Positions 1 through 9,856 of a stretch of 9,856 nt of DNA are shown in pieces (position 1 is the stretch's first letter; each line of letters begins with the position of its first letter). This DNA comes from a virus (lineage: Duplodnaviria; Heunggongvirae; Uroviricota; Caudoviricetes). The position numbers were made by a program, and so were the translations under genes. The notes beneath the pieces were generated by a model. The model saw only the letters and a list, made by a program, of their open reading frames with translations, ran no database searches and was not told the origin of the DNA. Location: IMG/VR virus record IMGVR_UViG_2698536570_000006, positions 1 to 9,856 of that record. One strand, given 5' to 3'.

Positions 1-1086
<1,086 letters not shown>

Positions 1087-1499: not shown

Positions 1500-1793
1500 A
1501 TGAAAAAAATGTTGTTTTCTGCCGCTCTGGCAATGCTTATTACAGGATGTGCTCAACAGACGTTTACTGTTGGAAACAAACCGACAGCAGTAACACCAAA
1601 GGAAACCATCACCCATCACTTCTTCGTTTCGGGAATTGGACAGGAGAAAACTGTTGATGCAGCCAAAATTTGTGGCGGCGCAGAAAATGTTGTTAAAACA
1701 GAAACCCAGCAAACATTCGTAAATGGATTGCTCGGTTTTATTACTTTAGGCATTTATACTCCGCTGGAAGCGCGTGTGTATTGCTCACAATAA
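1500..1793 (+). CDS. borD: Bor-family outer-membrane lipoprotein (serum-resistance, lysogenic conversion), 97 aa
   Basis: MKKMLFSAALAMLITGC lipobox followed by AQQTFTV...ETITHHFFVSGIGQEKTVDAAKICGGAENVVKTETQQTFVNGLLGFITLGIYTPLEARVYCSQ, near-identical to lambda Bor as I recall it. ATG at 1500 is preceded by AGGATAA. The track's upstream extension to 1452 is rejected. Confidence 0.9.
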   Translation: MKKMLFSAALAMLITGCAQQTFTVGNKPTAVTPKETITHHFFVSGIGQEKTVDAAKICGGAENVVKTETQQTFVNGLLGFITLGIYTPLEARVYCSQ

Positions 1794-1803
1794 TTGCATG
1801 AGT

Positions 1804-1821
1804 TGCCCATCGATATGGGCA
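1804..1821. terminator. Short hairpin between convergent bor and rzpD (TGCCCAT-cgat-ATGGGCA)
   Basis: 7-bp inverted repeat with 4-nt loop, seen directly, in the 31-bp gap between bor stop (1791-1793) and Rz stop (1825-1827). No clear U-tract on either side, so function as a bidirectional terminator is a guess. Confidence 0.3.
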
Positions 1822-1824
1822 GCT

Positions 1825-2286
1825 CTATCTGCACTGCTCATTAATATACTTCTGGGTTCCTTCCAGTTGTTTTTGCATAGTGATCAGCCTCTCTCTGAGG
1901 GTGAAATAATCCCGTTCAGCGGTGTCTGCCAGTCGGGGGGAGGCTGCATTATCCACGCCGGAGGCGGTGGTGGCTTCACGCACTGACTGACAGACTGCTT
2001 TGATGTGCAACCGACGACGACCAGCGGCAACATCATCACGCAGAGCATCATTTTCAGCTTTCGCATCAGCTAACTCCTTCGTGTATTTTGCATCGAGCGC
2101 AGCAACATCACGCTGACGCATCTGCATGTCAGTAATTGCCGCGTTCGCCAGCTTCAGTTCTCTGGCATTTTTGTCGCGCTGGGCTTTGTAGGTAATGGCG
2201 TTATCACGGTAATGATTAACAGCCCATGACAGGCCGACGATGATGCAGATAACCAGAGCGGAGATAATCGCGGTTACTCTGTTCAT
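1825..2286 (-). CDS. rzpD: Rz i-spanin (inner-membrane spanin subunit), 153 aa
   Basis: [22 protein letters not shown]-terminal TMD, then a coiled-coil-rich periplasmic domain ending ...[11 protein letters not shown] at 2286 overlaps the endolysin stop (ATGA). The upstream in-frame extension to 2298 is rejected. Confidence 0.88.
1884..2066 (-). CDS. rzoD: Rz1 o-spanin lipoprotein, 60 aa, embedded in another frame within rzpD
   Basis: [20 protein letters not shown] lipobox then the proline-rich [19 protein letters not shown], lying wholly inside the Rz ORF: the classic embedded Rz/Rz1 arrangement. Confidence 0.85.
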
Positions 2287-2780
2287 TGCTGACCCCACAA
2301 ACAGATTTCACGCTCAATCTCACGACGAGTCATGAGACCTTTCCATTGCTTACCGCCAGCATATGTCCAGCGACGTAGCTGATCACATGCGCCTTTGATA
2401 TCGCCCTGGTTTATTTTGCGAAGAAGCGTCGATGTTCTGAAATTGCCAGCACCCACGTTGTAAACGAATGAGTAAAGAGCGCCGCGCATTGTTTCCGGTA
2501 TATCGACTTTGATGTACGGGTTAATTTGTCTGGCGACCGTGGCAAGGTCTTTATTCAGGAGGGCTTTGCATTCTGCTTTGGTATACGTTTTACCGAGCAT
2601 GATGTCTTTTCCTGTATGCCCGTGACATACAGTCCATACACCAACAATATCTTTGTATGGTATGTAGCTGACACCTTCCAGACCATCGTTACCACTTGGG
2701 CCAGTAATTAACACTGATGCTATAGCAATTGCTCCGCCACCAATAGCAGCAGCAACGGCTTTTCGTAATGATGGAGGCAT
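2283..2780 (-). CDS. rrrD: SAR (signal-anchor-release) endolysin, T4-lysozyme-type muramidase, 165 aa
   Basis: Gly/Ala-rich weakly hydrophobic N-terminus ([20 protein letters not shown]) typical of a SAR domain, followed by a lysozyme core (...[16 protein letters not shown]...); matches K-12 RrrD/phage 21 R as recalled. ATG at 2780 overlaps the holin stop (TAATG). Confidence 0.9.
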
Positions 2781-2995
2781 TATTCACCTCTCGCAGCCTT
2801 GCGCTTATCTTCTTTAATCTTGAAATAAAGGTTTGTCAGGTACGTCAGCAGGCCAAATACCAGGCTACCCAGCACACCTATTGCTGCCCACTGTGAGGGC
2901 GTGACTTTATCGAGCAGCTGTAAAAACCAGTAACCGGCACTACCTGCTGAGGTGCCATAGGCGACACCCGTTGTTAACTTATCCATGGATTTCAT
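2780..2995 (-). CDS. essD: Class II pinholin (S21-like) with dual-start MKSM motif, 71 aa (68-aa form from Met4)
   Basis: [71 protein letters not shown]: two TMDs and a charged C-terminus, S21-like. GAGGTGGGG RBS upstream of ATG at 2995. The track's 86-aa extension to 3040 is rejected. Confidence 0.88.
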
Positions 2996-3040
2996 AACCC
3001 CACCTCGCAGACAAAGCGGGTGTAAATTGAGGGAATACAA

Positions 3041-3584
3041 CGTATCGCAAAAAAGCAGAAACGTAACAGACTCGGAGTCAGTGAATAACTCAGGTATTGA
3101 GTTATCAGCTAATATCGAGACTCAAAAAATGGAAAAACCAGCTCGACGGCGGGTTTAAGCTGTGTGACGAAGTAACCACTCTTAACAGCATAACCAATTT
3201 TTTACGTACGTAAACCACTGAATGATATTTATGAGAATGCTACCGAGTGTTCAAAACACCACCACAAATACATAAGAAAACCTCAACAAATAACCAACAA
3301 ATAATTTCCAGTGTTATTTTTAGCCGATTTAAATTGAACCTTCAAATTATAGAGCACTTATAAATAACAGCTGTTAATATAAATTGGCTAATAGATTTAT
3401 TTTTATTCAGCCAAGAGCTATGAATAGGATTCGATAGAAAAAAGTTCAGATAAAAATAGAGATCTACTTCACAAATCAAACGAGAAACCAAAACTTACAT
3501 CTTGAAATAATCACATTGATTAGATGAATATTTATCGCGCAGTGACATCATTTTTTAATAATAGTTCAAAAAAAAGGGCTCACG
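3041..3584. promoter_or_regulatory. Long AT-rich intergenic region upstream of the porin gene, divergent from the holin start; presumed porin promoter and regulatory region
   Basis: About 540 bp with no ORF of note. Contains a 12-bp palindrome TTACGTACGTAA (3202-3213), a tandem direct repeat CAACAAATAA-c-CAACAAATAA (3284-3304), and an AAGGG RBS before the porin ATG. No promoter hexamers could be assigned confidently by eye. Confidence 0.4.
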
Positions 3585-4682
3585 ATGAAAAAATTAACAG
3601 TGGCAATTTCTGCTGTAGCTGCATCAGTACTGATGGCGATGTCTGCTCAGGCAGCTGAAATTTATAATAAAGACAGTAACAAGCTGGATCTGTACGGGAA
3701 AGTTAATGCCAAGCACTACTTCTCCTCTAATGATGCAGATGATGGTGATACTACTTATGCCCGTCTTGGCTTCAAAGGTGAAACCCAAATCAACGATCAA
3801 CTGACTGGTTTCGGTCAGTGGGAATATGAATTCAAAGGCAACCGCGCTGAATCTCAAGGTTCCTCCAAAGACAAAACCCGTCTTGCATTTGCAGGCCTGA
3901 AATTCGGTGACTACGGCTCAATCGATTACGGCCGTAACTACGGTGTAGCATACGACATCGGTGCGTGGACTGACGTTCTGCCAGAATTCGGTGGCGATAC
4001 CTGGACCCAAACAGATGTGTTCATGACTGGTCGCACCACTGGTGTTGCAACCTATCGTAACAACGACTTCTTTGGTCTGGTTGATGGTCTGAACTTTGCT
4101 GCTCAGTACCAAGGCAAAAACGATCGTAGCGATTTCGATAACTACACTGAAGGTAACGGTGATGGCTTCGGTTTCTCTGCTACCTATGAATACGAAGGAT
4201 TCGGTATCGGTGCAACTTATGCGAAATCTGATCGTACCGACACTCAAGTTAATGCAGGGAAAGTTCTTCCTGAAGTATTTGCTTCCGGTAAAAATGCAGA
4301 AGTTTGGGCCGCAGGTCTGAAATATGACGCTAACAACATTTACCTGGCCACTACCTATTCTGAAACCCAGAATATGACTGTATTTGCTGATCACTTCGTT
4401 GCTAATAAAGCCCAAAACTTCGAAGCTGTTGCACAATATCAGTTCGATTTCGGTCTGCGTCCGTCCGTTGCTTACCTGCAATCTAAAGGTAAAGATCTTG
4501 GAGTATGGGGCGATCAGGACTTAGTCAAATATGTTGATGTAGGTGCAACCTATTACTTCAACAAAAATATGTCTACTTTCGTTGATTACAAAATCAACCT
4601 GCTTGACAAAAATGACTTCACTAAAGCACTCGGTGTAAGCACTGATGACATCGTTGCTGTAGGTCTGGTTTACCAGTTCTAA
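3585..4682 (+). CDS. nmpC: General-diffusion outer-membrane porin of the OmpC/OmpF/PhoE family (NmpC/Lc-type prophage porin), 365 aa, apparently intact
   Basis: Signal peptide [23 protein letters not shown] then AEIYNK. Porin hallmarks are [64 protein letters not shown] and the C-terminal VGLVYQF with terminal Phe. It is encoded opposite to the flanking Q and lysis genes, as in DLP12/PA-2. Confidence 0.9.
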
Positions 4683-4707
4683 TCTGATTACGAAAAAGAT
4701 ATGTTGC

Positions 4708-4724
4708 GGGAGGCGTTGCCTCCC
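4708..4724 (-). terminator. Hairpin GGGAGGC-gtt-GCCTCCC followed on the minus strand by a CTTTTT tract about 10 nt away; candidate early terminator or late-leader structure
   Basis: Perfect 7-bp GC-rich stem seen directly. The U-tract is displaced from the stem, so terminator function is uncertain. Confidence 0.3.
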
Positions 4725-4820
4725 CAACATATAAGTGGCTCCCTCAAGCCACTTCCTTTAGAAGCACAACCTTGCTTCTAACTATATAAACCTTCTGTTA
4801 TATATTACCCTTTATTTTTG

Positions 4821-4855
4821 GGGGCGTCTCAACGCCCCATTTTTAATAATTTTTA
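4821..4855 (+). terminator. Rho-independent terminator (GGGGCGT-ctca-ACGCCCC then ATTTTTAATAATTTTT), probably ending the porin transcript
   Basis: 7-bp GC-rich stem, 4-nt loop, immediate T-run on the plus strand, about 140 nt after the porin stop. It also lies just downstream of the Q stop on the other strand. Confidence 0.6.
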
Positions 4856-4871
4856 GTAAACAATTGGCATA

Positions 4872-5255
4872 TTAATTAGAGTTATTAACAACGATATCCA
4901 TCTCTAACCGGATATCTAATGCCATTAACATCCCTTCAATTATGCCCTCAGCCTTCTGTAACCTTTTCCCGATATAACCATCAGAGCAGCAATGCTTACC
5001 TGCCAGTGACATGAATGTCATACCGACTACATAATAATCTACTAATAAATCGTGCAAATCGCTGTTGTTCTTTTTCAGACGGGCCATGCACCCGCAAATG
5101 ATCATCGCGTCATCGTCACAACATTGCGGGCGAGATTTTACTTTTGAAGGAATTAATCCCTTAAAACCGGCGGCAATGGACGACCAGGTCACATCTTCAT
5201 GATTATTAGCCGCCCACGCTCCCCAACGCTCAAGAACCATCTGAATATCACGCAT
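4872..5255 (-). CDS. quuD: Q-like late-gene antiterminator, 127 aa
   Basis: [60 protein letters not shown]..., matching K-12 QuuD as recalled; Cys-rich, suggesting a zinc-binding motif. ATG at 5255 has GGAG 9 nt upstream. The track's TTG-initiated extension to 5270 is rejected. Confidence 0.85.
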
Positions 5256-5340
5256 CAACTTACTCCACAAAAATCAGACCAGAACGCCAATCACAAGCAA
5301 AAATCAACAAAACAGTATTAGTTGATTGTTATCTCTGACT

Positions 5341-5481
5341 TCATACTCCTGCTCCTGTCAGGGTTTTGGCGTAATTCTTCAGTATTCGGTAATCGGTCAA
5401 AACAGAACCGGGGAAACGATATAAGCGCAGATGCCCCCAGCGGTGGCGAAGAAGTTCTGCCATATAAAACTCAAACATCAT
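5341..5481 (-). CDS. ylcG: YlcG-like small protein, 46 aa; absent from the supplied ORF track
   Basis: Found by hand translation of the minus strand: ATGATGTTTGAG... gives [46 protein letters not shown] then stop. The start overlaps the rusA stop and the product matches DLP12 YlcG as recalled. Confidence 0.7.
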
Positions 5482-5840
5482 TCATTCCCCATTTCGGTGA
5501 TGGTCAGTTCCAGCCTCCCACCTTTGGTAACAGGCATCTTCACAACGCGGTAATCAACGACCTGAGCATCATCCAGCCAGAAACCTGCTTTAGTGAGTGC
5601 GTCAAAAGCGGCTTTTTGCAGATTATCCAGGTCACGGCGACGGCGATCCGGCATGTGGCACTCAATGCGGATTTTCACAGGCATAGCCAGGCCGATATCC
5701 AGCATTGCGTTTTTAATGATTCGGGCGACGTTATCGCGGTATGCCTGCCCCTCTGCGCTGATGTGCGTGCGCCCGCGATTATGGCGGTAATAGCGATTAT
5801 TGCTCGGAGGCCAGGGTAATGTGATGCTGTAGGTATTCAC
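5478..5840 (-). CDS. rusA: RusA Holliday-junction resolvase, 120 aa
   Basis: [120 protein letters not shown], essentially K-12 RusA. GTG start at 5840 overlaps the ybcO stop (GTGA). Confidence 0.95.
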
Positions 5841-6127
5841 GCCTTAATAACCCCCTCTTTCAGCCAGATAACCTGTGTTCTCGCCATACCTTCCAGCGCG
5901 CATTCTTTTGCATATGCAGCATCGACAAAATGTGTGCGGCGGTCGATTTCGTCGTGGCAGGCAGAACATGCAATGGTGGCAATCAGGTCTGGCGGTTTGA
6001 TACCGGTACCGCACAATCCAGCCAGCCGGATATGTGCCAGTACAGACGTTTCAGGGTTGCCATTACATACGCCAGGGATTCTTACCTGGCATTCCCGACC
6101 ACGCGCTGCTTTTCTCAAATCAGCCAT
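5837..6127 (-). CDS. ybcO: YbcO-like Cys-rich nin-region protein (DUF1364-type, putative metal-dependent nuclease), 96 aa
   Basis: [64 protein letters not shown]... with GGAGG RBS upstream of ATG at 6127; matches K-12 YbcO as recalled. The track's longer form from 6166 is rejected. Confidence 0.85.
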
Positions 6128-6290
6128 GACTCCTCCTTGCTGCCAGTCGCAACCATTTTTTATCAACCAAGCTGGCGGTATATCCGAGCAGTGTTGGTAT
6201 TTCGGATGGCTTCAGCTCAGGTTTACGCTTACGACGATTTGGTACTCTGTAGATGTGTCCGTTCATGACACGAATAAGCGGTGTAGCCAT
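6120..6290 (-). CDS. ninE: NinE-family protein, 56 aa
   Basis: [65 protein letters not shown]; ATG at 6290 overlaps the ybcN stop (TAATG). The track's longer form from 6353 is rejected. Confidence 0.85.
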   Translation of the reverse strand: MATPLIRVMNGHIYRVPNRRKRKPELKPSEIPTLLGYTASLVDKKWLRLAARRSHG

Positions 6291-6745
6291 TACGCCTCCT
6301 GCTTGTCGCGCAGCAGCTGAAACTCGCAGCTCTGTGGAATAGTCAGGTGGCAACCAATATTCATCGCCCAGGCTTCAACCTTACACAGGAAGACATACAT
6401 CTCTCCGGTATCAAGATCGGAGGTATGGCGTAACGACTGGATAGTGGTGATATCACCGGTTACGACATCAACCAGGTCTTTGGTTTCATAACCGAGATAT
6501 GTGTGTTTGAGAGCATCTTTTACCCAAGCTGGAGTAGCGAACGTTTTACCCTTGCTGATGAGGTATTCACTGATTTCGCTGTACCACATGTGGCTGAGTG
6601 CATTCTGGGAAAGACTGCGTCTCTCGCGCCACGGTTTAAGCACCATGCGAAAGCATTTGCCGTCCTCCAGATAAGGCTGGATCTGCCGACCGATAGCGGT
6701 GAAGTTACCGCGATGCAATTTGATACCATCTTGTGGGAGGTTCAC
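6290..6745 (-). CDS. ybcN: YbcN-like nin-region protein (DNA base-flipping protein family), 151 aa
   Basis: [62 protein letters not shown]... matches DLP12 YbcN as recalled. The start at 6745 is GTG with GGAG upstream; the exact start is uncertain. Confidence 0.82.
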
Positions 6746-6864
6746 GCTTCATCTCCGCAGAGATCAAACGCTGGATGCAAAATATCGCAGGTGCATTTCT
6801 GCATCTGTGAATGGAGAAGAGAGGTTGGATTGTATGTGCGCATAAACGTCCCCGTTTAGCGCAG

Positions 6865-6897
6865 AAGTCACCGGAGGAGTTCAAACTCCGGTGACTT
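6865..6897. repeat. Perfect 12-bp inverted repeat AAGTCACCGGAG-n9-CTCCGGTGACTT between the HNH gene stop and the ybcN start
   Basis: Seen directly: GC-rich 12-bp arms with a 9-nt spacer, 41 bp downstream of the HNH-protein stop. No adjacent U-tract on either strand, so it is not a canonical intrinsic terminator. Could be an RNA structure, a factor-dependent terminator or a protein-binding palindrome. Confidence 0.6.
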
Positions 6898-6937
6898 AAT
6901 TATGGCAAGTTGATTGTTGAAAATCAATTTAGTGGAT

Positions 6938-7720
6938 TTAGGCGCAATACAAAGGATCATTAGCAGCTCTAATACCGCCCTGAATCGCAAGCCCTGTATG
7001 GCAATTTGACATTGAGCATGATTGCCATCTGTGCAAGGGACCTCCATTAATCGAAACTTCCAGCAGATCTTTATCTCCTTTCATCCTGACCCCTTCATAC
7101 AACATATCAAGACGCTCAACAATCAATCCTGTTGGAGGTTCCATTTTTAGAACGAGGGCAAACTCTCCTGGCCCACGTCGTATTGTTATACGCGGGCCGG
7201 TACACTCCATATCCCAATTGTCTGATTTAGCTTTCCATTCATTTTCATCTATCAGTAAAGTCTCCTTACCAATAGAATTACAGAAAATTCCTGATAAAAG
7301 CATCGGTCCATGTGGTATGGGTGAAGGTTTCACAGAAAGAATGGGTTGTTCGTTGACTACAATCAAATTTTGACAGTTATGAAACGTCACTCCTGCAAAT
7401 TTTACTGTTATAGGCTCATTATGAAAATCAAACATTTCATTTGCAAAACCAGCCTGTAAGCACTTGGGATTTCTGTCAGCTATTTCCACTGTCTGTGCTG
7501 AAAGTCTACCACGAGCTCTTTTTTGATTGCATTGGGAGCAAAGAAGTGTCATTCCATTCGGATCATGTATTTTGGCATCAACGAAGTCAGGTTTAAAATG
7601 CTCATAATCATAAAATCCAAATCCACAAATTACACAGCCAAAGCCGCACCTTTGCCTTATCTGACGTTTTATTGTCTCAGGTATTCTTCTTGAGAGCCCG
7701 TGTTTATTAATATTGTCCAT
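6938..7720 (-). CDS. Uncharacterised 260-aa protein with an N-terminal HNH-type (zinc-finger) nuclease motif and an about 190-aa C-terminal domain of unknown function
   Basis: Residues about 25-68 read CGFGCVICGFGFYDYEHFKPDFVDAKIHDPNGMTLLCSQCNQKRA, fitting the HNH pattern CxxC...(D/E)H...P...N..LLC..C(N/H)..K. I recognise no family for the remainder. AT-rich coding sequence, weak RBS, ATG at 7720. Confidence 0.7.
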   Translation of the reverse strand: MDNINKHGLSRRIPETIKRQIRQRCGFGCVICGFGFYDYEHFKPDFVDAKIHDPNGMTLLCSQCNQKRARGRLSAQTVEIADRNPKCLQAGFANEMFDFHNEPITVKFAGVTFHNCQNLIVVNEQPILSVKPSPIPHGPMLLSGIFCNSIGKETLLIDENEWKAKSDNWDMECTGPRITIRRGPGEFALVLKMEPPTGLIVERLDMLYEGVRMKGDKDLLEVSINGGPLHRWQSCSMSNCHTGLAIQGGIRAANDPLYCA

Positions 7721-7734
7721 ATGGTTAGTACGCT

Positions 7735-7776
7735 ATAAGTTTGTTTCTATAATTTTACCACAATAGATAAGTTTGT
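7735..7776. repeat. Two exact copies of ATAAGTTTGT (7735-7744 and 7767-7776) spaced 32 bp apart, immediately upstream of the HNH gene start
   Basis: Seen directly in the 5' leader or promoter region of the HNH gene. Spacing of about three helical turns suggests a paired operator or iteron, but this is inference. Confidence 0.5.
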
Positions 7777-7850
7777 ATCAGAAATCGCTATATGGAGTGA
7801 GCGGAATATTTATATTATTCATACAATTGCTCTCCCGTACGCAGCCCGCA

Positions 7851-7876
7851 CTTCCGTCATCGCAGAATGACGGAAG
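7851..7876. repeat. Perfect 10-bp inverted repeat CTTCCGTCAT-cgcaga-ATGACGGAAG between the 107-aa ORF and the HNH gene
   Basis: Seen directly; 19 bp downstream of the 107-aa ORF stop (7895) on the minus strand. No U-tract. Candidate transcript-end structure or regulator-binding palindrome. Confidence 0.6.
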
Positions 7877-7894
7877 CCTTACTAACTAGCGCCT

Positions 7895-8218
7895 TTATTG
7901 AAACAGATTCTGAGGTAAATGCGGCAATACTCGACTCCACTTATCATCCTGCCACGGCTGAAGTTTTACATGTGCCGTTTCTCGGGCGAGGATTGCTCGC
8001 GCTCTGTTGAGTATCTGGGGATATTCTTGCTCGATGGAAGTGAAGTGACCAGCCTCACCATGCTCCGCATCCTGAAGAAGATGAGTAACGTTCTGGTAGG
8101 CAATTAACATCACATTCCCTGCTCGCCATAACCAGGCGAGTGTGCAAAGTTCGTTATCAGTGAATTGTTTTGTGATTGGGAATTGTTGAACTGCTAGAAC
8201 GAGAACGCCAGCATCCAT
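7895..8218 (-). CDS. Hypothetical protein, 107 aa, no recognisable family
   Basis: ORF MDAGVLVLAVQQFPITKQFTDNELCTLAWLWRAGNVMLIAYQNVTHLLQDAEHGEAGHF... with GGGA 6 nt upstream of ATG at 8218. Same strand as its neighbours and protein-like composition, but the coding status is unproven; an antisense 62-aa ORF also exists. Confidence 0.4.
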   Translation of the reverse strand: MDAGVLVLAVQQFPITKQFTDNELCTLAWLWRAGNVMLIAYQNVTHLLQDAEHGEAGHFTSIEQEYPQILNRARAILARETAHVKLQPWQDDKWSRVLPHLPQNLFQ

Positions 8219-8329
8219 TGGCAGTCCCTATAGTAAAACCATAGCTCAGGACGCTTCGTTCAGGATAGATACTTTTATTGTACTTACCTAACTTTCTTAC
8301 TATAGCACGGTTGAAAAAGTGATTATTAC

Positions 8330-9856
8330 TCAAAAATAAACCTCACCATCAACCATATATTTGAGAGTACTTATCGCCTGCTGGGCGGATATTGTTTTCA
8401 TTAAAGGATAGTGTTTAAAAACAATGCCATTCATAAAATAGATATCACAGGTTTTATTATCTGTATTGATTATGATTTTTTCGAATGTTTTATAGGCAAG
8501 TGTACGACATAGCTCTCGCCCATTTTTACTGGTTAAGTCAATAGCATGAAAATCACCAAGTGAACTCACCGCTTTACTCTTCAAAGTTTTTAATGATACC
8601 GAAGCCCTTCGTAATTCCTTATCTAATACTCTGATTTTTTCTGCTATAGCGGTAACTTCAGGCGCGACAGACAATGCAACGATTAAATTATTAATTTTCA
8701 TCTGAAGCTCAATAATTTTTAACTCTAAAGTTTCATTAGCATCTTTCTTGTTTTCAACTGGTTGAATTTTGCCACAATTAAAAAGCAATTCATTAATGAT
8801 ATTATAATCAACCAAATCTCTTTTTATTGATGGCCTGTCACATCGATGTAATCTTCTCATCGGACAAACATAATAGCCATGCAAACTTCCAGATACCGCA
8901 TGAACAATCATGGTATTACCACAAGCCTCACACTTCATAACTGTTCGAAGTAGATTTATTAGCATAGGATTCTTGCTACTATTGCTAATACCAAAAGGTG
9001 CCAACCGAATTTCCTGTACAGCGTAAAACAAATCATCTGATATGACTCTGGGATAATAGCCAGCGATTTCACTTATCCCTTTCCCTCTTGCACGATATGA
9101 AGGTACGCATATACCTATCAGAGCTTTATTCGCTAATAATTTTTCAATTACAGAAGGCCCCCATGCACTTTCTTTTCCTGAGAAATTCTTTACAGCATGA
9201 TCATTTAAATACTTGGCTATTGCATTCAATGAGCGCCTTTCCATCCTGAGTTTAAAAATTAGCTCAATAGTTTTCACCCTGTCGGGGTCTGGAACAAAGG
9301 CCGTTCTTTTGTCATCTAAGGAGAGCCATCTCGGACAAGACGCCGTCATAATCGTACCTGATTCCAGTGCATCCTGCCGTTTTTTCTTCCATGATAATTT
9401 AACCCGACTTGACTTTATCTCGCTTTCTTCATTTGCCCTTTGTGCTATAAGTATGGCTTTTATTAATGAATATGGCTCATTCAAAGAGTCAATATTATAG
9501 ACTGTATTGTCGCAAAGAGTTATAACATCAATACCGTGATTCAAAATCAATTTCAGACGTTCAATCGCTTCACCGACTTTTTCTCTTGAAAGTCTGTCCA
9601 GACTTTCAACTAACAATGTAGTTCCTGGCAATATATAACCATGCTCTATAGCATCTAAAAATTCCGAAAAAGCTCCTGATTGTGCATGCTTTCCTTTGAA
9701 TGCACTTAATCCTAAATCTTCATATGTTATGGTATCAAGATAATAATCACTATTTACCTTTAACCATTCAGCAATAAGTCTTCTCTGTCGGTTTAATGAG
9801 TCGCCAGACATCTGACCTGGTGATGAAAATCGCATATATGCTATGGCTTTTTTCAT
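8330..9856 (-). CDS. ybcK: Large serine recombinase (YbcK-like): resolvase-type catalytic domain, recombinase domain, Cys-rich zinc-ribbon-like segment and predicted C-terminal coiled coil; 508 aa
   Basis: N-terminal AIAYMRFSSPGQ...SLNRQ...TLLVESLDRLSR fits the serine-recombinase catalytic motifs (YxRVS..Q, SLxRQ, DRLxR). CEACGNTMIV...YYVCPMRRLHRCD is a candidate zinc ribbon; the C-terminal region is Leu/Ile/Lys/Glu-rich. The ATG sits exactly at the window end (9856), so the promoter and anything upstream are not visible. About 35% GC. Confidence 0.85.
   Translation of the reverse strand: MKKAIAYMRFSSPGQMSGDSLNRQRRLIAEWLKVNSDYYLDTITYEDLGLSAFKGKHAQSGAFSEFLDAIEHGYILPGTTLLVESLDRLSREKVGEAIERLKLILNHGIDVITLCDNTVYNIDSLNEPYSLIKAILIAQRANEESEIKSSRVKLSWKKKRQDALESGTIMTASCPRWLSLDDKRTAFVPDPDRVKTIELIFKLRMERRSLNAIAKYLNDHAVKNFSGKESAWGPSVIEKLLANKALIGICVPSYRARGKGISEIAGYYPRVISDDLFYAVQEIRLAPFGISNSSKNPMLINLLRTVMKCEACGNTMIVHAVSGSLHGYYVCPMRRLHRCDRPSIKRDLVDYNIINELLFNCGKIQPVENKKDANETLELKIIELQMKINNLIVALSVAPEVTAIAEKIRVLDKELRRASVSLKTLKSKAVSSLGDFHAIDLTSKNGRELCRTLAYKTFEKIIINTDNKTCDIYFMNGIVFKHYPLMKTISAQQAISTLKYMVDGEVYF

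Follow-up and report, generated by a model that had tools for sequence, protein, structure and literature searches.

A two-domain gene in a defective lambdoid prophage

The stretch of viral DNA analysed here, called the window throughout (9,856 nt; IMG/VR record IMGVR_UViG_2698536570_000006), is a DLP12-like defective lambdoid prophage of Escherichia coli, and the present study concerns an intact 260-amino-acid (aa) open reading frame (ORF) on its minus strand, which joins a predicted HNH nuclease to an orphan beta domain and which we call the HNH-beta gene (Table 1). The encoded protein is identical to WP_072188611.1 of E. coli, named 'hypothetical protein', and the DNA is 100% identical in E. 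coli AW1.7 (NZ_CP073624.1). Its PHROG match is phrog_6544, 'unknown function' (E 1.4e-140), and a literature search on the accession and the PHROG identifier found no paper. We put at about even the chance that the product of this prophage gene is a nuclease that acts against phages, is complete in itself and is gated by its own C-terminal domain.

Table 1. Features of the HNH-beta gene and its surroundings (positions in the window)
Feature	Position (nt)	Strand	Basis and remarks
260-aa ORF, predicted HNH nuclease plus orphan beta domain (WP_072188611.1)	6938..7720	-	ORF list; ATG start; intact
Predicted basic Zn-finger HNH (beta-beta-alpha-Me) nuclease domain, residues 1-90	7451..7720	-	Core motif residues 22-68 = nt 7517-7657
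Predicted acidic all-beta domain, residues 92-246, ~15 strands	6983..7447	-	Predicted structure
Conserved patch I157-x2-N160-E-W...W169-D170...G175...R181	7178-7252	-	C-terminal domain
Sigma-70-like promoter match CTGATA-18-TAAAAT with TG	7752..7781	-	31 nt upstream of ATG; consensus scan, weak
107-aa ORF, C-terminal fragment of P22-type antirepressor	7895..8218	-	Pfam P22_AR_C, E 5.8e-14
Perfect 12-nt inverted repeat, 9-nt loop	6865-6876/6886-6897		41 nt downstream of stop; RNA fold -21.4 kcal/mol, z -3.5
Perfect 10-nt inverted repeat, 6-nt loop	7851-7860/7867-7876		Between 107-aa ORF and HNH-beta gene; RNA fold -22.8 kcal/mol, z -3.1
Variable segment, 1363 bp, replacing ybcL-ybcM of K-12 DLP12	6928..8290		Between ybcK and ylcH/ybcN

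An earlier note, made from the letters of this DNA alone, had described the same ORF, which starts with ATG, and several of its remarks on the gene agree with the ORF list and the sequence. The motif CVIC...YEHF.P...DPNGMTLLCSQCNQKR occupies residues 29-68 (nt 7517-7636); residue 25, named in that account, begins at nt 7648. The gene is AT-rich, with a G+C content (GC) of 40.6% overall and 31.8% at third codon positions (GC3) and with 31-33% in its poorest 100-nt windows, and where the note saw a weak ribosome-binding site, no Shine-Dalgarno sequence is visible within the 40 nt that precede the ATG. A conserved promoter or operator travelling with the gene was considered and rejected, as the upstream DNA of seven enterobacterial homologs fails to align.

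The N-terminal domain is predicted, from sequence and from modelled structure, to be a zinc-finger HNH DNase. In an alignment of 80 relatives (28-100% identity), on which all conservation counts given here are based, R22, R24, G28, C29, C32, H41, H52, L60 and C61 are invariant and C25 is kept in 79 members; position 40 is E, H or D in 79, position 64 is C in 58 and H in 20, and at position 65, 57 members have H, 20 have N and three have Q. The window protein carries N65, the 'HNN' variant, as in Cas9. Because the HNH positions are conserved across this alignment, its catalytic set and zinc finger are complete, with H41 as the predicted general base, E40 and N65 as putative metal ligands, and C29, C32, C61 and C64 as the putative zinc site. 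Both the CxxC...CxxC/H zinc finger, with C29, C32 and C61 in every relative, and the beta-beta-alpha-metal fold of the HNH / His-Me finger superfamily were found. The domain is basic, with a median isoelectric point (pI) of 8.8 across members.

The earlier note had called the HNH signature clear. The HNH identity stands by fold and conserved residues, but by sequence profile the signature is marginal, as the protein scores 14.4 bits (E 0.043) against Pfam HNH PF01844 and does not reach the gathering threshold of 21.4 bits; the relative P0155 scores 25.0 bits and others 17.9-20. An NCBIfam scan of the 260-aa protein gave no match, and the family appears to be a divergent HNH branch. The nearest HNH structures are those of Cap5, McrA-type type IV enzymes and HNH-Cascade, all immune effectors, and the domain was also compared with IscB, type I-E HNH-Cascade, GVE2 HNH, ScoMcrA, TagI, ZRANB3 and P1 Ref. 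Cap5 itself, the HNH-SAVED effector of CBASS (PDB 7RWK), differs in that its C-terminal SAVED cyclic-oligonucleotide sensor is not found in the window protein and in that it is encoded beside a CD-NTase gene, whereas 86 HNH-beta loci have no conserved neighbour.

The C-terminal domain, modelled alone with a mean predicted local distance difference test (pLDDT) of 87.9, has a predicted fold that seems unlike any solved structure. No match was found for it in Pfam, NCBIfam, PADLOC or the sequences of the PDB, and Foldseek against BFVD gave none below E 0.17; on the same BFVD result we rejected the idea that it mimics a phage structural protein, as has been proposed for SVIR. The fusion of an N-terminal HNH domain to an unmatched domain, which the earlier note had read from the translation, is borne out, at a domain size of about 160-170 aa in place of 190, and the strong match to a well-characterised family that could have overturned it was sought by profile and structure and not found. 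The best-kept positions are I157, N160 (78/80), W162, W169, D170 (79/80), G175 and R181. The Cys/His-rich tail that had been singled out is, on the other hand, not conserved, only W229 and G243 being kept there, and we dropped it as a metal site.

With a median pI of 5.4, and a net charge that is negative in 79% of members, the C-terminal domain is acidic, which argues against a generic DNA-binding module and fits a regulator or sensor better than a DNA-binding role. A profile search with this domain, word-indexed, retrieved, besides three short fragments (88-163 aa), only proteins of 233-313 aa, as expected for the HNH-plus-beta architecture. Within the limits of such a search, this pattern is consistent with both domains forming an obligate unit, and it speaks against a sensor swapped among other effectors.

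The same domain invites a second reading, namely that the protein is a type IV-like restriction endonuclease, in which the beta domain would be a new reader, binding or flipping out a modified base or recognising unusual DNA through an N160/W162/W169/D170 pocket. Foreign DNA would then be cut by the HNH domain without further ado, no phage protein acting as a gate; the function would still be defence. The conserved aromatic residues and the acid/amide patch might resemble the chemistry of a base-binding pocket, enzymes of type IV stand alone, do without a methylase and are often carried by prophages, and a paralog in P2-like prophages (see below) has a weak PADLOC match to mREase_IV (E 0.009), which is not significant. 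An acidic domain is, however, unusual for a DNA reader, and no reader-like fold was found. Compared with the McrA-type enzymes (EcoKMcrA 6GHC, ScoMcrA 5ZMM, TagI 6GHS), in which the HNH domain is C-terminal, the order of domains is reversed, the extra domain is acidic, and none of the known reader domains (SRA, EVE, SBD, NEco) is found. We thus consider this reading unlikely.

Relatives and their genomic settings

Close homologs number 305, nearly all of about 250-270 aa and named 'hypothetical' or 'HNH endonuclease', and come from Enterobacteria, Burkholderia, Comamonas, Pseudomonas and Vibrio. Among 1.84 billion cluster representatives, a profile search found 2693 at E<=1e-3 and 836 at E<=1e-30, and nearly all of the 150 matches listed span both domains. 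A species-level scan placed relatives in Proteobacteria, Cyanobacteria, Planctomycetes, Acidobacteria, Verrucomicrobia, Chlamydiae, Deinococcus and Streptomyces, with a single archaeal case in a Methanothrix metagenome-assembled genome (MAG); homologs from Gammaproteobacteria share up to about 50-60% identity with those from Betaproteobacteria. Members elsewhere, P0133, P0142, P0351 and P0353 among them, bear C-terminal additions (TPR repeats, a CxxCxxCC zinc/iron-chelating domain, a SEC-C motif), and the extensions of some other relatives (400-670 aa) match nothing in Pfam. Such a patchy spread across phyla, together with the foreign composition of the window gene (GC3 32%), is typical of horizontally traded accessory genes.

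In the window, the minus strand reads ybcK (serine recombinase, 8330-9856), the 107-aa ORF, the HNH-beta gene and a 33-aa ylcH-like ORF, followed by ybcN/ninB, ninE, ybcO, rusA, ylcG and quuD and then by the porin and lysis genes. The blocks that blastn finds in common with K-12 (NC_000913.3) stop at 6927 and restart at 8291, which agrees with the prophage cargo slot proposed in the earlier note. In the related prophage of E. coli Res13-Lact-PEA06-10 (locus L100, NZ_CP062883.1), the slot between the gene for replication protein P and ylcH/ybcN holds a 643-aa SIR2 protein (L100 4550-6481) that matches pAgo-associated SIR2 and the PADLOC candidate PDC-S65 (E 5e-63 to 4e-33). The P/ybcK-to-ninB slot of E. 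coli hence alternates between ybcL-ybcM, the HNH-beta gene and a SIR2 protein, which suggests a hotspot of defence genes where the nin region of lambdoid prophages begins. At L100 4001-4272, the final 50 nt of the HNH-beta gene are fused to a decayed antirepressor (window 6938-6987 and 7991-8165); since this end of the gene remains, we conclude that the gene was once present there and that an imprecise deletion, covering window 6988-7990, has removed it.

Other enterobacterial phages and prophages carry their homologs at the start of the nin region as well, after O/P or DnaC and among DinI, HolE, DUF1367, NinG and Q. This position raises the question of whether the protein is a nuclease of the phage life cycle, similar to NinG/Rap, RusA or the HNH packaging helpers, which would process intermediates of replication, recombination or packaging. 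Besides the co-orientation with the early-right operon just after O/P or DnaC and the nearness of ninB, ninG, rusA and Q, this explanation can draw on a weak PHROG similarity to NinG/Rap (E 0.52) and on the 107 IMG/VR viral contigs that encode an HNH-beta protein. The gene nevertheless co-occurs with NinG or RusA and does not replace them, in the window as elsewhere (lambda NinG/Rap, DLP12 YbcO/RusA), and no Pfam NinG (PF05766) match was obtained at E<=1. Moreover, the gene is rare, the window allele being found at >=99% identity in 82 of 5426 complete E. coli genomes and an HNH-beta gene in one of 50,697 deposited phage genomes; it is intact in a defective prophage that cannot replicate, lies on the strand opposite to its neighbours in a Pseudomonas prophage, and also occurs outside phages (integron cassette, plasmids, housekeeping neighbourhoods). 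We give a life-cycle role little credence.

Further settings point towards defence. Some homologs adjoin the integrase at prophage ends. In P2-like prophages, a 41%-identical paralog of 236 aa, with the classical H at position 65, lies between gpA and the portal gene gpQ, an interval described as a P2 defence hotspot holding old and tin (Rousset et al., PMC9122126). Complete E. coli genomes with this paralog number 21 (e.g. NZ_AP027694.1 1304020-1304920; loci L174-L180, e.g. L179 6001-6711). Beside it lies either a gene similar to AbiU/AIPR (E 6e-35) or one similar to PD-T7-4 (E 1e-6), and a related P2-like arrangement is seen in P. luteola. In Vibrio cholerae, a homolog of 53% identity (P0119; GCA_046530255.1), which belongs to a rare cluster of seven sequences and to a strain other than N16961, is a one-gene cassette of the superintegron bounded by VCR repeats (L093 605-728 and 1495-1618). 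VCR/attC repeats bound each gene on this locus, the flanking cassettes encoding an acetyltransferase and a glyoxalase. Some family members are on plasmids, and a homolog of Paraburkholderia sp. A2WS-5 (L005) adjoins a giant UvrA/ABC-like ATPase of 1987 aa (1527-7490) that matches mad3 and mad8 of MADS. One homolog among loci L013-L036 lies within 4 kb of DISARM (DrmA, DrmMI, DrmD); from its very long flanking ORFs, our guess is that this is L032, a Synechococcaceae MAG. Taken over these loci, the slots that the family occupies are often ones in which defence genes are known, or likely, to reside.

As a separate observation, E. coli prophages with a 62%-identical homolog carry an ImmA/IrrE metallopeptidase and DUF4411 pair beside the repressor (L097 1116-2764), the peptidase matching PADLOC capP and RmrA weakly; DefensePredictor has the same product-name pair among its hits, as 'PIN2' (PMC13092281).

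The variety of settings also bears on the possibility that the gene is a selfish, free-standing homing endonuclease, whose C-terminal domain would be a sequence-specific DNA-binding module and which would spread by cutting cognate sites. HNH homing endonucleases are likewise solitary, AT-rich, intergenic insertions in phage genomes, and the presence/absence polymorphism between similar prophages and the sporadic distribution would suit one. Yet the insertion contexts differ wholly between loci and do not form one cognate site, in one setting the gene is an integron cassette, which moves by attC recombination, and the loss allele of L100 is an imprecise deletion that took part of the neighbouring gene. 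On the protein side, no NUMOD, IENR1, AP2 or HTH module was found with Pfam, the C-terminal domain is acidic, and strong conservation of both domains from phylum to phylum, including polar residues that never vary, contrasts with the fast-diverging specificities of homing enzymes. This explanation seems to us quite improbable.

No partner gene emerged from the neighbourhoods. Clustering of ORFs of at least 70 aa within 5 kb of 86 loci showed no conserved partner and no neighbour family in more than seven loci, the largest cluster being heterogeneous; the median gap to the next gene is 201 nt on the upstream side and 150 nt on the downstream side, and those few neighbours that are tightly coupled bear no relation to one another. 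A partner for the HNH nuclease was rejected on these grounds, including the 107-aa ORF upstream, which the earlier note had proposed for co-expression. The PHROG Ant matches of this ORF cover only the C-terminal end of profiles of about 213-319 positions, the antirepressor ORF is a frameshifted pseudogene in the L100 prophage, and it was not found at other loci of the family. These features mark the 107-aa ORF as what is left of an antirepressor gene, and it does not qualify as a partner.

The two palindromes said to flank the gene exist as perfect repeats, but the idea of a cassette between them is only half borne out: the repeat at 6865-6897 lies inside a block shared with K-12 (window 4616-6927) and belongs to the DLP12 backbone, and the one at 7851-7876 lies inside the variable segment. 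Neither hairpin is followed by a U-run, and the 7851-7876 repeat is for this reason not a canonical intrinsic terminator.

Some features of the prophage itself may be recorded here. In NZ_CP073624.1 (L001, 3274116-3299746), it lies between bioA/ybhB and ybhC, an interval that we take to be the lambda attB region, beside an IS3 element and a truncated integrase gene, and it has retained emrE and ybcK as well as the nin and lysis genes; DLP12 of K-12 is elsewhere in the chromosome (564,755-586,056). On the plus strand, window 3585-4682 holds an intact nmpC/ompC-like porin gene of 365 aa, the nmpC of K-12 DLP12 being interrupted by IS5. The large serine recombinase gene ybcK (minus strand) has 36% GC compared with 51% for the nin genes, and its stop codon is 40 nt from the variable segment. 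Window 1-1068 (minus strand; L001 4786-6369) is high in GC (54-65%) and is what remains of a J-like tail-fibre gene (DUF1983) that carries a pseudogene annotation, and the many overlapping ORFs listed there are probably spurious.

A putative gated anti-phage nuclease

Given its solitary state and its settings, we propose that the HNH-beta gene is carried alone, as cargo, in the variable slot with which the nin region begins, and that its product would need no partner. The gene is carried without an immunity or methylase gene, and the nuclease must therefore be gated or specific. We suggest that the acidic beta domain would act as a built-in regulator or sensor that leaves the HNH nuclease harmless in the lysogen, and that a cue from a superinfecting phage would release or direct the nuclease, probably through the N160/W162/W169/D170 patch. 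The ensuing cleavage of DNA would block the invader by direct restriction or by abortive infection, so that the function of the gene, as we infer it, would be the exclusion of competing phages.

Several results weigh against such a role. The PADLOC 2.0 scan found nothing significant for the 260-aa protein, PtuB being the match named (E 0.04, 11.8 bits). The consensus scan for promoters found 6 sites compared with 4.2 expected, which is not significant. A deletion remnant of the L100 kind is present in 26 complete E. coli genomes, from which it follows that the gene is dispensable. The lambdoid phages have the gene in the same orientation as their early-right operon and amid genes of the nin region with no part in defence (DinI, HolE, NinG), and from this arrangement it could serve the phage itself. 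A universal association with defence islands was rejected, as 148 neighbours in 22 diverse bacterial genomes, examined with Pfam and PADLOC, are mostly housekeeping genes within 4 kb, with the one DISARM locus. Finally, the role of gate or sensor is one that we infer for the C-terminal domain. Of the anti-phage proposal made in the earlier note, the location (P2 hotspot, integron cassette, prophage ends) lends circumstantial support and the function is predicted from context, while a partner gene is not supported.

Known systems provide precedents by analogy, as single-gene defences of HNH type exist in Sirona, Nemetona and DS-7/SVIR. The last of these (WP_225403053.1; PMC13092281) is likewise a single-gene candidate of E. 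coli, with a Cap5-like N-terminal HNH domain and a non-enzymatic, beta-rich C-terminal domain, but its sequence is unrelated to the window protein (BLASTP E 0.29; hhalign probability 0.4%) and its C-terminal domain is the baseplate-like DUF2634. Identity with a DefensePredictor candidate was rejected to this extent: SVIR is unrelated, and the accession was not found in part of the supplements (PMC13092281). Septu PtuB and the retron-associated HNH proteins (TIGR02646) also differ, the PtuB match being far below significance, with no PtuA ATPase or retron neighbour in the window, none conserved elsewhere, and no equivalent of the C-terminal domain.

Sirona and Nemetona deserve particular attention. 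They are single-gene anti-phage cassettes of the superintegron of V. cholerae N16961, in which 16 cassettes are anti-phage; both are described as distant relatives of His-Me/HNH endonucleases, and Sirona has homologs in 34 pseudomonadotal genera (Darracq et al., bioRxiv 10.1101/2024.07.02.601686). Selection with phage T4 or ICP2 brought out Sirona a second time (10.64898/2026.03.17.712381). The V. cholerae homolog of the present family resembles them as a single-gene integron cassette with distant HNH similarity, a shared feature that does not prove homology, and the HNH-beta family could be Sirona or Nemetona. When homologs were sought with the V. cholerae member as the starting point, no N16961-type cluster came up, and the models of PADLOC 2.0 are older than the description of the two systems. 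In view of these cassettes, to call the function 'undescribed', as the earlier note did, may be too strong. HNH-beta is a well-defined and widespread HNH fusion family, uncharacterised unless it is Sirona or Nemetona, with good positional evidence for defence.

Going further, we entertain, tentatively and with more doubt than conviction, the idea that HNH-beta is a new and widespread single-polypeptide immune nuclease, in which a sensor of new fold would read a conserved infection cue through its invariant N160/D170 patch and switch on the HNH DNase. The cue might be a nucleotide, some unusual nucleic acid or a protein of the phage. If this is true, the C-terminal domain would be a new class of sensor apart from SAVED, CARF, STAND and the known readers of modified bases. 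It would be carried by prophages, including the P2 hotspots, by integrons and by plasmids, over a range that takes in Proteobacteria, Cyanobacteria, Actinobacteria and one Methanothrix MAG.

If the protein is an immune nuclease, the family would represent a compact one-gene defence of about 250 aa with a new sensor or regulatory fold, counted in 2693 cluster representatives, and the P-to-ninB slot of lambdoid prophages would be a defence hotspot comparable to those of P2 and P4. If the family instead proves to be Sirona or Nemetona, the present study would add to that system a two-domain anatomy, its conserved residues and its occurrence in E. coli prophages. In addition, a small HNH DNase gated by a trigger or ligand would be a tractable model for the silencing of nuclease effectors.

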